A DNA stretch of 25,235 nt from a virus (Duplodnaviria; Caudoviricetes): IMG/VR virus record IMGVR_UViG_3300005512_000301, positions 1 through 25,235 of that record. One strand, written 5' to 3'. This document shows, piece after piece, positions 8,624 to 24,983 of the stretch. Position 1 is the first letter of the stretch, and each line of letters starts with the position of its first letter. The translations under genes and the position numbers were made by a program. The notes under the pieces were generated by a model. The model was not told the DNA's origin. It saw nothing but the letters and a program-made list of their open reading frames with translations, and did no database searches.

Positions 8624-8670
8624 TAGTATAAGTAATAGTATAAGTAATAGTATAAGTAATAGTATAAGTA
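8624..8670. repeat. Tandem 12-bp repeat TAGTATAAGTAA x~4, followed by a degenerate AT-rich tract to ~8720
   Basis: Units at 8624, 8636, 8648 and 8660 (last one 11/12). Confidence 0.92.
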
Positions 8671-8730
8671 TAATAGTAATAGTATAACTATAATAGTAAT
8701 ATAATATCTAATTATTTATCTTAATCTTAA

Positions 8731-11426: not shown

Positions 11427-11704
11427 ACTATCCCCTTATATTTTGATAAATTTTCTGCGTTCCATTGAATGCCTATTATACATAAATAAGACACATTTTA
11501 TTATTTACGTAGTTATTCTCCTTATATTAATACATAAGACTTATATATTATCCCTACGCTTACTTACTGCTAAGGTTAATATATAAATGTTATCTACGTA
11601 TCCCGATATCAACCACGCTGTTTGGCTTCCTAGGGTATCCACCACCACAATCAAAACTTCTAATTGATAGGCTAAGTTTTATACTGCGTTATCAGTTACT
11701 AAAT

Positions 11705-11713
11705 ATTATAACA
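11705..11713 (-). promoter_or_regulatory. Extended -10 sigma70 promoter (TGTTATAAT)
   Basis: Perfect TGnTATAAT at the head of a ~315-bp intergenic region. Confidence 0.5.
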
Positions 11714-11742
11714 TTATATTTAATACAATGTACAGCTATTAT

Positions 11743-11985
11743 TTAACAATTTATATCTGATATATAATACTGCTCTATCCACTTAGAGCCACAATATTGA
11801 CCTAGTTTCTGAACGTATACGCCATCCACTTTAAAAAAATCCCTTTCACCTCCTTCAAACTCTATTGTAGCTAGTTTTTCATTAGCTTGTATACCTAATC
11901 TATAAAATAATACTTTTGTAATTTCAGTCCATTCCCTTTCAAATTCTGTATATCTTACACTATTTAAATCTTTTATAATGTTCAT
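11743..11985 (-). CDS. Early hypothetical protein
   Basis: GAGG RBS, packed behind the first gene. Confidence 0.6.
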   Translation of the reverse strand: MNIIKDLNSVRYTEFEREWTEITKVLFYRLGIQANEKLATIEFEGGERDFFKVDGVYVQKLGQYCGSKWIEQYYISDINC

Positions 11986-11989
11986 GTTA

Positions 11990-12220
11990 CTACCCTCGTT
12001 CCATTACTTCGTTTTCATCTAACCCTATCCATTCACATACAGCCTCAAACTCGAACCAAAACAGGTCATTTAGTTGTGTTTCGTCCATACCCTCTGGATA
12101 GATATCATCTAGTACACTTTCTAACTCATTCAATTCTGTATAAGTTAAATAAGAAGCGTTATCTTTAGCACCACTCCAAAAGTTAAAAGCTGTAAGGTTT
12201 TGTTCTGTTTGAATTTTCAT
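11990..12220 (-). CDS. First early gene: small very acidic protein, candidate DNA mimic/anti-defence
   Basis: 18 D/E vs 3 K/R in 76 aa; FWSGAKD...ET.LNDLFWFE motif recurrent in mobile elements; first ORF after the host promoters. Confidence 0.65.
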   Translation of the reverse strand: MKIQTEQNLTAFNFWSGAKDNASYLTYTELNELESVLDDIYPEGMDETQLNDLFWFEFEAVCEWIGLDENEVMERG

Positions 12221-12255
12221 TTTAATTACTCTCTCTTTTTGTTTGATTCGTGGTC

Positions 12256-12284
12256 AGTATAGTAAAGCTTTTAACTATTGTCAA
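12256..12284 (-). promoter_or_regulatory. Host sigma70 early promoter P2 (TTGACA-17-TATACT)
   Basis: -35 at 12284-12279, -10 at 12261-12256, AT-rich upstream. Confidence 0.85.
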
Positions 12285-12387
12285 GTTTATTTTAACGTTA
12301 ATTACATATTAATAAACTCTCTTATATATAATACCTTTTTAACGTCCTGACTCGGTATGGCAGACTACTTGTATATATAAGAGCGAC

Positions 12388-12399
12388 TTGTTAAAGAAC
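12388..12399 (-). promoter_or_regulatory. boxA antitermination-like element GTTCTTTAACAA
   Basis: Matches rrn/lambda boxA (GCTCTTTAACA) with one C>T change; ~15 nt downstream of the P1 start. Confidence 0.6.
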
Positions 12400-12420
12400 T
12401 TTTCTTGCTTGTTGTGTCCT

Positions 12421-12448
12421 ATTATACAGGGTTGGGCTAGTTTGTCAA
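12421..12448 (-). promoter_or_regulatory. Host sigma70 early promoter P1 (TTGACA-16-TATAAT) with AT-rich UP-like element
   Basis: Perfect hexamers at 12448-12443 and 12426-12421; A/T tract at 12453-12478. Confidence 0.85.
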
Positions 12449-12481
12449 TGACTATATTCAAATTAATTTAAATAATTAGCC

Positions 12482-12671
12482 CAAAGGGAATGACAAAGGG
12501 AATAAGTAATATATATATTGGTGCAATGTTTGCCATATTAAGGTGCAGCAAAGGGCAAAGGGAAACAAAGGGCAAATAAGAACTACTATCAAATGAGAAT
12601 CATTATCAATTAAGAACTATTATCAAATAGGAATCTAATGCAAATGAGAATCATTCTTATTAAGCAAAGGG
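12482..12671. repeat. Dispersed heptamer CAAAGGG x6
   Basis: Exact copies at 12482, 12494, 12549, 12556, 12566 and 12665. Confidence 0.85.
12573..12659. promoter_or_regulatory. Five tandem 17-bp units resembling Fur boxes
   Basis: Units at 12573, 12590, 12607, 12624 and 12641; TGAGAATCATTATCA (12594-12608) matches the 7-1-7 Fur consensus TGATAATnATTATCA at 13/14 specified positions. Confidence 0.7.
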
Positions 12672-12675
12672 ATAA

Positions 12676-12826
12676 GTTGGCACGATTCTTGCTAAGGGCT
12701 TGGCTAAGTAGTACACTAAGTACAATTACTAGGGGCTAGGGTTGGCACACTTCTTGCTAAGGGCTAGAGTTGGCATGATTCTTGCTAGGGCTGGGACTGA
12801 GGCGGGAAGTTGGCATGGTTCTTGCG
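12676..12826 (+). promoter_or_regulatory. Four sigma54 (RpoN) -24/-12 consensus sites in direct repeat
   Basis: TGGCACGATTCTTGCT (12678), TGGCACACTTCTTGCT (12743), TGGCATGATTCTTGCT (12771), TGGCATGGTTCTTGCG (12811); all GG-N10-GC. Confidence 0.78.
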
Positions 12827-12882
12827 GGGGGGCATGGGGGAATTACGTAGCGCGTATAAAGAGAGACACCTCAAAGATTTTT
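12826..12882 (-). other. Predicted start of the direct terminal repeat / left genome end (~12864-12866)
   Basis: Minus strand AAAAATCT..GAG.G..TCTC...TTCCCCCAT (TCTC starts 22-24 nt before TTCCCCCAT) resembles the T7 terminal-repeat start (TCTCACAG...TTCCCCCATAGG, recalled); lies between terL and the early promoters. Confidence 0.6.
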
Positions 12883-13030
12883 GTGTCATTTTTTGAGCCC
12901 TATACTAAGCACCTCCCTAAGAGGGCAGTACACTAGATACTATTTCGGGGGCATTAAGGGAGTATTAGTAATAAGTATACGTAGTAGTATTAATTACTAA
13001 TGAAGTCTTAATAATAGTAGTAGTAATAAT

Positions 13031-13081
13031 AGTAATACGTAAGTATTACTGAACGGATACCTTCGCTATGCTCAGGTATCC
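13031..13081. repeat. Two adjacent perfect 8-bp palindromic stems
   Basis: AGTAATAC-GTAA-GTATTACT (13031-13050) and GGATACCT-N11-AGGTATCC (13055-13081). Confidence 0.8.
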
Positions 13082-13140
13082 TATACTATTACTTATACTA
13101 TACTATAGTATATATAGACGTTTCCCCCAGGAATCTTATT

Positions 13141-13183: not shown

Positions 13184-14860
13184 TTAGTAGTTATTTATAT
13201 AATTTACTTTAGGTGTATTATAACTACCATATATCTTTTCATTTAAGAACTGTTCCATCCTACTCTTATTAAGCTCATCTATAGTTCTTTCTGTATCAAC
13301 CATAACCATATCCTTAACATATTGACAGGCAATAGCCAAAGCATCTAATCTATCATCATGTGTTAAGGATTGTCTATCTCTAGTCAAGTGTGTAAACTGA
13401 TGTATTAAACTATATACTAAGTTAGTAGGTTCTTGTTGTACCATCTCAGAGTCTTTCTGTATTACATCATAGTTAATAACTAGTTTGTGGTTAGATACTA
13501 AAGGTTCTATGTTTTCTATAATACGTAACTCTTTCTGTCCTTTAACCTTAAAGTCTTCTTCTATAGTACAAGGATATACAGTAGCTATTACTTTACTAAG
13601 TAAGTTATAGAACATACCTCCACCCCAGTTAGCTTCAGGTACAATAGTATTAACTTTATACTCCTTAGCTTTATTAGCAAAGAACATTAGAGCTTCATCT
13701 GAGAAGCCTAAGCGTGTACCACCCACATCTAAGATATATACATACCCATTAAGGACTCCTAGGATTGCGTATGTGGCTTCATCTGTACCTTTACCTGATG
13801 GGTCTATAGACATCATCTTAAAGTCGTAAGGAGCGTACTCTGAGTGCGTTCTAAGAGGCTTATGATAATAGTCACCTGTAAATCCATAGTTAGGTAATTC
13901 TTTAATTACATTATCAGATGAACCAGAGTAAGTAATAGATAGTGGTGCTTCTTCTTTATCAAGAGGATGTACAATTAAATCCTTAAGCTTAAGAGGGAAT
14001 CTCTCAGCATCAGATAATGTAGTATCTAGGTTGTACTGTAACTTGAAGTTAGCAGCTCCCATAAAGCCCCTACGTTCTATTAATACTTCATCTGGGAAAC
14101 GTACCTTATCTGTAGCATCTCCAGGATTACCTTGTTCAAGAATCCAAGGGTCTAGCTTACCATTATACAGCTCAGGCTTCTCAGGTACTTGAGCAGGTAG
14201 TATAGTAGTAGGGTAGGTAAGTTTATTATATATAGTCTCCATAGACTGAGGAGTACCTAGCATTAGTACGCTACTTGGTAAATCAGGTATTAGTAGTGCT
14301 TCAAACTCAGATACCTGTTGTACTAGCTTCTCTCTCATTAATTCAGTAGCTGAGTTAGAAGGTACTTCAACATCATCCCCTAAGATTAATGTAGCACGTC
14401 TACCTGTAATCTGTCCTGTAATACCTACAGCAGCTACAGAAGGAGCAATAGAAGGTTTAGCACCTTGTACATCAAACGCTAGTACACTATCACGATGTTC
14501 ACTAGAAGGTCTAAGGTGATGTAGTAAAGGTACTTCTTCAAACAGTCTACGTACAAAGGTAGCTATCTCAATAGCCTTAACACCAGATGCAGAGATAACT
14601 AATATCTTTTCATCTATATTACGTAATAATCTCCATGTAGTATAGATAGCAGATATCCAAGACTTACCAGTACCACGTGCAGCCTCTAAGATAAGTCTGT
14701 CTGGGTTATCCCCAATAATATCAGCTATCCTATTCTGTAGAGGTGTAGGGCTTGGTAAGTTAATATTAGTATATACATACTCAAGGTACTTTGGAAAGCT
14801 ATTGATTATCTCTGTTAGTTCTTGTCTGTTTAAATTGTTTATTGTTGTTTGTTTTGGCAT
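13184..14860 (-). CDS. terL: Terminase large subunit (T7 gp19-like)
   Basis: Walker A EAARGTGKSWI, GITGQITGRRA.LILGDDVE, LGTPQ, nuclease DPSGKGTDE and HDDRLDALA; AAGGAG RBS. Confidence 0.96.
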   Translation of the reverse strand: MPKQTTINNLNRQELTEIINSFPKYLEYVYTNINLPSPTPLQNRIADIIGDNPDRLILEAARGTGKSWISAIYTTWRLLRNIDEKILVISASGVKAIEIATFVRRLFEEVPLLHHLRPSSEHRDSVLAFDVQGAKPSIAPSVAAVGITGQITGRRATLILGDDVEVPSNSATELMREKLVQQVSEFEALLIPDLPSSVLMLGTPQSMETIYNKLTYPTTILPAQVPEKPELYNGKLDPWILEQGNPGDATDKVRFPDEVLIERRGFMGAANFKLQYNLDTTLSDAERFPLKLKDLIVHPLDKEEAPLSITYSGSSDNVIKELPNYGFTGDYYHKPLRTHSEYAPYDFKMMSIDPSGKGTDEATYAILGVLNGYVYILDVGGTRLGFSDEALMFFANKAKEYKVNTIVPEANWGGGMFYNLLSKVIATVYPCTIEEDFKVKGQKELRIIENIEPLVSNHKLVINYDVIQKDSEMVQQEPTNLVYSLIHQFTHLTRDRQSLTHDDRLDALAIACQYVKDMVMVDTERTIDELNKSRMEQFLNEKIYGSYNTPKVNYINNY

Positions 14861-23598: not shown

Positions 23599-24060
23599 CT
23601 ACTCTCCTGTGATTGTAATATAATTAATTGCATCTATATTCCTCGACATAAGTTGTTCATAAGAAGAAGTCATTTCTTTTTCCGCTCCTTCTATTGTTGT
23701 TTGTTTAGTAGTAAAGCTCATAGCTACATAAGTATCTTCAAAAGCAACTACAGCTTGTTTTCTATCTTTACTACCAGGCACTACTTTAAAACCATCTACT
23801 ATAAAAACAGAATCTCCTTGAGAGAATTTTGCTTTTCCATGTATAGTTACTGTGGTAGGAACTTCTATTATTGTACCTACAGCAACTGCGCCTTTTGGTA
23901 TAAAAACAGTTCTGGTATAGATACCTCCATGTAAAGTATGCCACGTAGTAATATCTAATTGGGTTTCTTTTTTTAATACTGCTTCAAGATTATTTATTTT
24001 TTCAAGGCCTTCTTTTGAAGAAGGTACTATTTGTGTTTGTCTTAGTATTACCTTGCTCAT
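23599..24060 (-). CDS. Cupin-fold phage protein
   Basis: HTLHGGIYTRTVFIPKG...VG..I..PT ... G...RKQAVVAFEDT pattern of podophage cupin-like proteins found beside ejection genes. Confidence 0.6.
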   Translation of the reverse strand: MSKVILRQTQIVPSSKEGLEKINNLEAVLKKETQLDITTWHTLHGGIYTRTVFIPKGAVAVGTIIEVPTTVTIHGKAKFSQGDSVFIVDGFKVVPGSKDRKQAVVAFEDTYVAMSFTTKQTTIEGAEKEMTSSYEQLMSRNIDAINYITITGE

Positions 24061-24512
24061 GATAATACCTTAGTAAATAAAGTATTGGTAGCAGTAAAGC
24101 CAAATATTCTTGCAGCTTTTTCTAATCTACTTTCTTTGGGTGCAGTCATAATAAAGGCTTTTATTCCAGCTTTCCTAGAAACATCTTCTAAAGTATTAAG
24201 TAACCGTTTAGTTGTATTTGTATTTCTATATTCCTGTAATACAAAAATAGCAGATGTAGACACAGACTTTACTAGGTAATGTGGCAAAATACTAAAACTT
24301 GCCATTATAAAACCTACTAGTTTATCTTCTTCATAAGCCGCAATTACTTTAAACATTCCAGTATCTTCTAACTCTTGATATACATACTCTTGTACGTTAG
24401 CTTTAGGAAGTACTTTATTATTAGACTCATTTATGTATGCAGATACAACATTATCCCAGTTACTACTAGAAAATAATTCCTTTACTGTAACAAGTTTAAT
24501 TTTAATTTCCAT
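24057..24512 (-). CDS. GNAT family acetyltransferase (paralog 2)
   Basis: KLVGF, PHY, IFVLQEYRN (motif A, degenerate Gly loop), LEDVSRKAG. Confidence 0.75.
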   Translation of the reverse strand: MEIKIKLVTVKELFSSSNWDNVVSAYINESNNKVLPKANVQEYVYQELEDTGMFKVIAAYEEDKLVGFIMASFSILPHYLVKSVSTSAIFVLQEYRNTNTTKRLLNTLEDVSRKAGIKAFIMTAPKESRLEKAARIFGFTATNTLFTKVLS

Positions 24513-24530
24513 ACCCTCTCCTTTAATTCT

Positions 24531-24983
24531 TTACTTCAATACCCTAATAAATTGTACGTTAGCTTTCTTATATCCGAACAGTCTAGCTGCTTTTTCTAGT
24601 CTACCACCAGCTGGGGCAGTAATATAAAAGAACTCAGCTCCTGCTTGTTTAGCATATTCTTCAGCTGTACGTATTAGTTTAAGTCCTGTATTCCCTTTGC
24701 GGTAATTATCATCAACATATAAAGATTCTGTATCTGCTGCCAGTACATCATAGTGTAAATAGTAACCTATTGTAGTAACAGTAAATCCTATTAAGATAGC
24801 ATCATCAGAATAAGCACCTACTATAATAAGTTCATTATTATTTTCTATCTCTTTATATTTTTCATATTTTGGGTTAACATCTTTAAGATATTCAAGTGAA
24901 GATTCTTTTTCATAATCTAAACATAATCTGACAAACCCTGGAGTATTCCAAAGTTCATCAAGACTAATTTTTCTAAAATACAT
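24531..24983 (-). CDS. GNAT family acetyltransferase (paralog 1)
   Basis: LIGF, LHY, LYVDDNYRKGNTGLKLI..AEEYAKQAGA (intact acetyl-CoA motif A). Confidence 0.85.
   Translation of the reverse strand: MYFRKISLDELWNTPGFVRLCLDYEKESSLEYLKDVNPKYEKYKEIENNNELIIVGAYSDDAILIGFTVTTIGYYLHYDVLAADTESLYVDDNYRKGNTGLKLIRTAEEYAKQAGAEFFYITAPAGGRLEKAARLFGYKKANVQFIRVLK

Follow-up and report, generated by a model that had tools for sequence, protein, structure and literature searches.

Host-factor sites just inside the predicted left end of a T7-like marine phage: four sigma54-type repeats as possible docking sites on entering DNA

Four sigma54-type promoter sites stand in a part of a phage genome where there is no gene for them to transcribe, and the question raised by this locus is what such sites would do there. 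The window, that is, the whole stretch of DNA analysed, is a 25.2-kb fragment (~62% complete) of a marine T7-like podophage, which encodes a single-subunit RNA polymerase, a T7-type DNA polymerase, a primase-helicase and a terminase, all on the - strand. The single-subunit RNA polymerase and the T7-type terminase, with genes on one strand, place it among the T7-like phages (Autographiviridae; phrog_414, E 7e-169, and phrog_38, E 6e-101), and the nearest cultured phage is Roseobacter phage CRP-143 (OR420748), with 60% identity in the RNA polymerase and 74% in the terminase large subunit (TerL). Within the structural region, two GNAT acetyltransferase genes (phrog_1249) stand in tandem after a tail-fibre-like gene (window 23599-24983). 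The sites occupy a gap without genes, bounded by the terminase gene, which ends at 13184, and by the first early gene at 12220, and both near-perfect sigma70 promoters found in this gap aim into the early genes. The features of the region, in the direction of the phage genes, are the following:

13184..14860, - strand: terminase large subunit gene, the genome's last gene; its 3' flank runs into the end block, the fragment being circularly assembled
12827..12895, - strand: conserved genome-end block (A-tracts, GAGGTG/TCTCTC boundary, C-run), present in 12/13 clade loci and aligning with the T7 repeat start
12810..12826, + strand: predicted sigma54 site 4, 12/14 consensus positions, next to the end block's G/C run and ~40 bp inside the predicted end
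12770..12786, + strand: predicted sigma54 site 3, 13/14, 28 bp from site 2
12742..12758, + strand: predicted sigma54 site 2, 12/14
12677..12693, + strand: predicted sigma54 -24/-12 site 1, 14/14 consensus positions, ~175-190 bp inside the predicted end
12482..12671: six CAAAGGG heptamers (12482, 12494, 12549, 12556, 12566, 12665), clade-wide short repeats
12573..12660: 17-bp tandem array with three Fur-box-like palindromes (12594-12608, 12611-12625, 12645-12659)
12520..12547, + strand: two GGTGCA half-sites (12520, 12542), the second inside a degenerate NtrC-type 17-mer
12421..12448, - strand: sigma70-type early promoter, 12/12 consensus, 16-bp spacer, -35 box 419 bp from the predicted end
12256..12284, - strand: second sigma70-type early promoter, 11/12 consensus, 17-bp spacer
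11990..12220, - strand: first early gene, 76 aa, phrog_5149, of unknown function

All four copies keep the GTTGGCA-N3-TTCTTGC sequence on the + strand (exact matches at 12676, 12741, 12769 and 12809), with the GG (-24) and the GC (-12) exactly 10 bp apart in 4/4 sites and irregular distances of 65, 28 and 40 bp between copies, as a sequence-only reading of this DNA had described them. The same reading placed them opposite to every gene, and all annotated-type phage genes of the window are indeed on the - strand. Its statement that variation is confined to the bases between the two cores holds for the spacer changes, but not for a GCG in place of GCT after site 4, the sole departure outside the spacer. 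Simple tandem duplication was rejected because the copies are irregularly spaced and their spacer bases vary, whereas the consensus positions hold. The extended consensus used for scoring, YTGGCACGrNNNTTGCW (taken from an excerpt of PMC13207237), is matched at 14, 12, 13 and 12 of its 14 specified positions in sites 1 to 4, and the next best site in the window reaches 11. The strict pattern TGGCAY-N5-TTGC occurs in the record four times forward and zero times in reverse, with zero matches to a reversed-pattern control, and 2000 simulated 25-kb sequences contained 0.036 strict sites each and never more than one per 200 bp, which upholds the earlier claim of a sigma54 consensus under selection beyond chance. 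Sites 2 and 3, at 28 bp from each other, are likely too close to hold two holoenzymes simultaneously.

Nothing to transcribe was found next to these sites, in agreement with the sequence-only reading. The only + strand ORF across them (12742-12936, 64 aa, TTG start) has no PHROG match and would be truncated by the predicted end, and downstream of the sites there is no credible ORF and no Rfam family above threshold (one sub-threshold match, E 0.6), although a short RNA may lie there. The bEBP GAFTGA motif is absent from the six frames of the window, which represents 62% of the genome. In sequence and in GG-N10-GC spacing, the sites are like the bacterial sigma54 promoters treated in excerpts of PMC13207237, PMC3844500 and PMC7057263, where the sigma54 closed complex is stable without an activator, and by analogy a stable, activator-dependent closed complex is expected here. 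Unlike those promoters, they come as four copies in 150 bp with no downstream gene and no conserved enhancer, their orientation is free among relatives, and Fur or DnaA boxes can replace them.

The left end of the mature genome, and with it the start of the terminal repeat, is predicted at ~12866 (±3), because an alignment with T7 and the starts of the T7, SP6 and phiKMV records agree on this position. The - strand block at ~12895-12835 aligns with T7 DNA across the start of the T7 terminal repeat, and the three records begin with TC(T/C)C.., a TC-rich hexamer, and have a C-run motif at nt 27-29, which falls at nt 28 in the window counting from 12866. The same end-block layout is found at nt 1 of the Kp7 record. 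An end at this place puts the sites 40-190 bp inside it, the distance that had been given for them before. GTGTCTCTCT had first been read as the inner end of the repeat, since the T7 repeat also ends so; this was rejected because of the longer match to the T7 repeat start and the starts of the SP6, phiKMV and Kp7 records. Five clade contigs, including one with the sequence of the window, run 126-286 bp beyond the predicted end before they stop, as would be expected from a repeat of that size but also from assembly breaks, and the contigs of one metagenome sample (share 0.20, contigs only) leave 11536-12875 uncovered and are hence silent on the ends. A scan for the end-block pattern gave seven stretches, one of them a clade member, and scans for a C-run combined with a sigma54 site yielded 2 + 2 stretches, of which none was T7-like.

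Between TerL and the end block there is also a hairpin-like inverted repeat (GATACC..GGTATC core, 13047-13080), with similar hairpins in the related loci L011 and L013; T7 carries hairpins in the zone between its terminase and its genome end. A 12-bp-period repeat of the AGTAATAGTATA type (~5 units, 8624-8694) lies just upstream of the RNA polymerase gene, and one inverted copy is present at 13082-13101, 100 bp past the terminase gene, where L011 has kept it too. The repeats of this type are candidates for a phage promoter or origin iterons.

Further elements lie between the sigma54-type sites and the early promoters. The best two of the three palindromes match 15/19 and 14/19 positions of the 19-bp Fur consensus, and the palindromes (12594-12659) are taken here to be Fur-type boxes. 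Similarly, the degenerate 17-mer over 12542 is presumably NtrC-type; it is ~165 bp upstream of the predicted +1 of site 1, compared with a usual bEBP enhancer distance of ~80-150 bp upstream, and is missing in 10 relatives. The CAAAGGG repeats sit where T7 has CCTAAAG repeats, and the slot of the window, that is, the stretch after the end block, contains no DnaA box. The Fur-box stretch (12588-12671) gave weak blastn matches to unannotated gaps of the T5-like phages Lindwurm, KS_S14, J2-1 and 10AMN.

The slot was compared across 13 clade loci with a TerL identity of at least 56%, kept from the collected TerL relatives; L002 and L008 were left out as coming from L011's contig, L031 because its sequence is that of the window, and L035 and L036 as near-duplicates of L013, and the close pairs L033/L325 and L012/L015 remain in the set. 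The end block was found in 12 of the 13 loci, with host-type sites directly after it in 11; L014 has none of the sigma54, Fur-type or DnaA motifs in its slot, and L037 is too short to show the block. Sigma54 sites are present in three loci, as four outward sites in the window, three inward sites in L011 (the closest relative, TerL 87%) and one inward site in L032, and most clade members with a 71-74% identical TerL have no sigma54 motif. Fur-type boxes were found in 10 loci (the window has three, at 12594-12659, and L015 as many as seven), and DnaA boxes, by the consensus given in the accessible text of a study on T5 (bioRxiv 10.1101/866236), in five, three of which (L012, L015 and L050) have them as pairs 3 bp apart. 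Both factor and orientation are thus exchanged within one slot among relatives, and sigma54 sites are one kind of content found there besides Fur-type or DnaA boxes. Because Fur-type boxes are present in the window itself, and Fur or DnaA boxes in its relatives, the element is a multi-factor array and no sigma54-specific device; since the sites of L011 and L032 are inverted, the outward orientation, to which the sequence-only reading had attached a meaning, is beside the point.

The position of the slot is fixed while its content varies. The first site is 42-58 bp from the predicted end in 10 of the 11 loci with sites (75 bp in L013), and the distance from the last site to the first -35 box ranges from 47 to 328 bp in six measurable loci (146 bp in the window), the last Fur-type box being 47-52 bp from the -35 box in CRP-143 and L012; no site overlaps a -35/-10 promoter in 6/6 of the measurable loci. 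Part of the constancy of the first site's distance is imposed by the layout, since nt 1-40 are taken up by the end block and most of the non-coding space is at the genome end. In a further 34 TerL loci, more distant and in some cases perhaps stopping short of the genome end, there is no case of two such sites within 2 kb downstream. The 12-mer ATTATGTTAAAT recurs within the arrays of L011, L012, L015 and L050 (500-600 bp after TerL); it is presumably ArcA-like and is probably a fourth host-factor site. The clade contig L325 belongs to a 1.7-Mb 'Proteobacteria' bin with Fur and no rpoN match, and the rpoN cut-off was passed by 12 of the 31 genomes searched around this bin; it was set aside as host evidence because it may be incomplete or mixed.

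Beyond the clade, IMG/VR was surveyed for two strict sigma54 motifs (TGGCAY-N5-TTGC) within 35 bp, the control having a spacer one base longer. Such pairs occur in ~1,400 stretches (an estimate from 125 seen in 6/64 parts), and control pairs in 114 in the whole collection. When the first 80 loci were taken from either set, 12/80 sigma54 pairs and 67/80 control pairs fell within an ORF of at least 150 aa, and clusters of at least four sites number 39 for sigma54 and 16 for the control (loci not de-replicated), with mixed orientations in 27/39 and 0/16, respectively. At positions that were not part of the search, 419 distinct sites have Y (83%), R (96%), R (78%) and W (89%), as in the sigma54 consensus, from which the control differs. 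Since the motif is common to unrelated phages and shows the host consensus at unsearched positions, it is most likely read by a host factor. In a scan of 140 ORFs that had no control set, 10 of the 39 arrays have a terminase ORF within 1.5 kb and five more share an endolysin, which precedes TerL in three of the terminase-linked arrays. A C-run with the polarity seen in the window lies between the terminase module and the array in 12 of these 15 terminase-linked arrays of other phage groups, a layout shared with the mapped left end of cobaviruses, whose repeats start G+C-rich in the portion of PMC6775973 drawn on here.

Cultured phages carry host-factor sites as well. Klebsiella phage Kp7 has five same-orientation DnaA boxes in the slot (L184:63-222), inside its 238-bp terminal repeat; the related phages SP6 and K1-5 have no such boxes. 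Short matches to this DnaA-box stretch come from many further SP6-like records of Klebsiella, Proteus and Vibrio phages. No sigma54, Fur or DnaA motif was found in the slot of T7, SP6, K1-5, phiKMV, ICBM1 and CRP-113. The cultured phages DC31, phiK7A1, Vibrio phage D419, Ab03 and PAK_P3 have non-coding sigma54 sites, the first three also having DnaA boxes. In the Pseudomonas Nankokuviruses PAK_P3 (L329:1799, 1946) and Ab03 (L189), two divergent sigma54 sites lie in a non-coding gap with a C-run before and a sigma70 promoter after them, and a 12.7-kb contig with inverted terminal repeats (L194:72, L195) has one near-perfect, inward-facing sigma54 site at nt 72 of both ends. In CRP-113 (L317, ~2000-2050), TGCACCA heptamers, presumably similar to an NtrC half-site, are repeated right after the predicted left-end C-run. 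In a hand-picked panel, sigma54 clusters were found in phages of Limnohabitans, Pseudomonas and Vibrio and in none of pelagiphage HTVC027P, 023Pt_psg01, AM24, MW202484, PVA7 and the Seuss stretch, and MW202796 had one sigma54 site and one Fur-type box; because the panel was picked by hand, it carries no weight for a correlation with host rpoN. A blastn search of the arrays against cultured phages gave short motif matches only.

Here it is tentatively proposed, at somewhat under an even chance, that the four repeats are non-transcribing docking sites, which likely hold or shield the entering end of the genome. T7-type phages inject their left end first and host polymerase at the early promoters pulls in the remainder, which favours a role at entry. 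The array begins ~40 bp inside the predicted left end, likely the first injected, and ready-made host proteins would be loaded onto this entering end, holding and shielding it up to the moment when the early promoters, ~420 and ~580 bp inward of the end, are occupied by host RNA polymerase. The benefit would fall at entry, when one genome copy is present and phage proteins are still unmade, and would consist of no back-sliding and less exposure to free-end nucleases or silencers. The constant feature would be a bound host protein just inside the tip; such proteins would have to bind in vivo, and any abundant sequence-specific host protein should suffice. Because relatives have flipped copies or Fur-/DnaA-type boxes, the slot likely loads any bulky host protein, with no transcription of a gene. 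Transcription is argued against by the free orientation, the lack of a gene and the lack of a conserved enhancer, with which the docking or roadblock role favoured by the sequence-only reading over mRNA production fits better. Additional support for docking comes from the fixed position with variable content, the host-factor motif, the selected exact spacing, the DnaA boxes of Kp7, the C-run layout and the stable closed complex expected at the sites. On the other side, the slot is empty in T7, SP6, K1-5, phiKMV, ICBM1, CRP-113 and L014, so the array is dispensable for T7-type entry in general, and RecBCD evicts bound proteins in vitro, which weakens the nuclease-shield version. Sigma54 closed complexes are also described as reversible in a literature passage. 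Furthermore, Fur, sigma54/NtrC and DnaA all report host state, which fits sensing equally well.

Sensing of host state, in which iron (Fur), nitrogen or envelope signals (sigma54 and its activators) and replication (DnaA) would tune early transcription or replication and so shift lysis time, is regarded as unlikely, although it has precedents. According to an excerpt of PMC9437464, phiCbk-like phages have clusters of CtrA sites in their terminal repeats, where CtrA binds and regulates phage promoters ('lytic deferment'), and phi29 uses Spo0A sites. The window likewise has host-regulator sites, at its predicted terminal repeat and directly upstream of the early promoters, and the last Fur-type box comes closest to them in CRP-143 and L012 (47-52 bp from the -35 box). 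However, the phiCbk-like sites are for a single factor, promoter-associated and shown to be regulatory, whereas the window has a swappable factor and no promoter overlap; sites and promoters overlap in 0/6 measurable loci, with a gap of 47-328 bp (146 bp in the window), and close relatives swap factors for unrelated signals and flip the sigma54 sites.

A roadblock at packaging, where a host protein just past the repeat boundary of the concatemer would stall the phage RNA polymerase or the packaging motor and position the terminase cut, appears rather improbable. It would explain why the first site abuts the conserved cut-site block in 10/11 loci, and it has a precedent in T7, whose RNA polymerase pauses at the concatemer junction and recruits terminase (excerpt of PMC3276506); the uncontrolled association of arrays with terminase modules in 10/39 other-group loci, and with the module's endolysin in five more, also points this way. 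The T7 pause, however, is at the far end of the repeat and the sites here are 40 bp inside its start, the arrays span 200-330 bp, beyond the need of one stop, and similar clusters are found in a T5-like pre-early region and in the inverted terminal repeats of the 12.7-kb contig, both of which package differently. Late in infection, host proteins may also be outnumbered.

The sites could instead act as a sponge, a genome copied about a hundredfold titrating sigma54 holoenzyme, Fur or DnaA, so that iron uptake is derepressed for an iron-dependent ribonucleotide reductase or host programmes are halted; this is an improbable account. The sites are multiple, near-consensus and orientation-free, a terminal repeat would double their number, and, in the available text of PMC11092137, the clade encodes a class I ribonucleotide reductase and CRP-143 is without the endonuclease and exonuclease genes of its relatives, so its host chromosome may persist. 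Nevertheless, titration would work from any position, whereas the first site keeps close to the end; it would also set in only late in infection, and in several relatives the number of sites is as low as 1-3.

True leftward sigma54 promoters, as a counterpart of T7 A0, would depend on an NtrC-type activator and give rise to short RNAs (run-off or anti-terminase) or to primers for replication, and are considered very improbable. The left end of T7 (V01146) shares the end block, a zone of short repeats, two strong sigma70 promoters at ~420-600 bp from the end and, close to the end, a leftward site for host polymerase, annotated as promoter A0 at nt 224; in the window, site 1 is a perfect consensus with the degenerate NtrC-type site ~165 bp upstream. 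T7 A0, however, is a single sigma70 promoter, and the corresponding region of T7, SP6, K1-5 and phiKMV is free of sigma54, Fur and DnaA motifs. Moreover, both relatives with sigma54 sites have them reversed, NtrC-type half-sites are missing in 10 relatives, and there is neither a gene nor an Rfam family at threshold; the PAK_P3 record, with its RNA-seq-based annotations, lists no RNA at its two divergent sigma54 sites, a weak point against transcription. Lastly, binding by a phage protein such as the terminase small subunit or a replication initiator, the sigma54 likeness being coincidental, is hardly credible, for although the repeats lie next to the terminase cut-site block, where T7 has short repeats that are phage-specific, the full sigma54 consensus appears at unsearched positions, the motif is common to phage groups with unrelated terminases and absent from most clade members with a TerL of 71-74%, and for a phage-specific role the CAAAGGG repeats of the clade are available; the terminase binding that the sequence-only reading had named as its own counter-case is therefore unlikely.

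For docking on the entering end, published kin are already available in the DnaA boxes of T5 (bioRxiv 10.1101/866236) and the CtrA clusters of phiCbk-like terminal repeats (PMC9437464), both as given in excerpts of these sources. In the text excerpted from bioRxiv 10.1101/866236, the T5 injection-stop region has host-protein sites in non-coding DNA, as the window does, in its case within a terminal repeat and with a proposed physical role in entry. Its DnaA boxes are pairs 3 bp apart, like those of L012, L015 and L050, whereas the window has none, and its sites are 6-9.5 kb into a long repeat and proposed to stop injection, whereas those of the window start 40 bp from a T7-type tip. The T5 region also lies at the inner end of a multi-kb repeat with the A1/A2 pre-early genes and goes with two-step injection, and A1/A2 had no match among the 27 proteins scanned. 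The array would act like a sigma54 binding site and like the T5 host-protein region, without being a demonstrated promoter, and it is no injection-stop region. CRP-143 (group ARP-B in PMC11092137) shares gene order and end block with the window and has three Fur-type boxes in the slot and no sigma54 site; in the available main text of PMC11092137, the terms 'terminal repeat', 'promoter' and 'termini' do not occur. No report of sigma54 or Fur arrays at phage ends was found in the open-access literature, subscription papers and supplements lying outside this scope. What is new at this locus is the swap of factor and orientation within a clade at a fixed distance from the end, together with the spacing-controlled survey. 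In a wider and more speculative form, which is possible and held with less confidence than docking in the window itself, many unrelated lytic phages would pave the first few hundred entering bases with interchangeable, high-affinity sites for abundant host proteins (sigma54 holoenzyme, Fur, DnaA) as a general cis-element, a passive, gene-free entry ratchet and shield, with an unfired RNA polymerase serving as a mechanical clamp.

There is no settled account of what catches and protects the leading end of an injected phage genome while phage proteins are still to be made, and a role of host DNA-binding proteins at entry has been argued mostly from theory, in addition to the DnaA boxes of T5. 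The clade is a natural experiment in this respect: sites for three unrelated host factors, in either orientation, fill a slot whose place at the tip is fixed, and the existence of the cultured carriers CRP-143, Kp7 and PAK_P3 opens the slot to direct testing. For thousands of uncultured phages, these motifs could additionally help in predicting where the genome ends lie and which hosts, as carriers of rpoN or fur, are infected.
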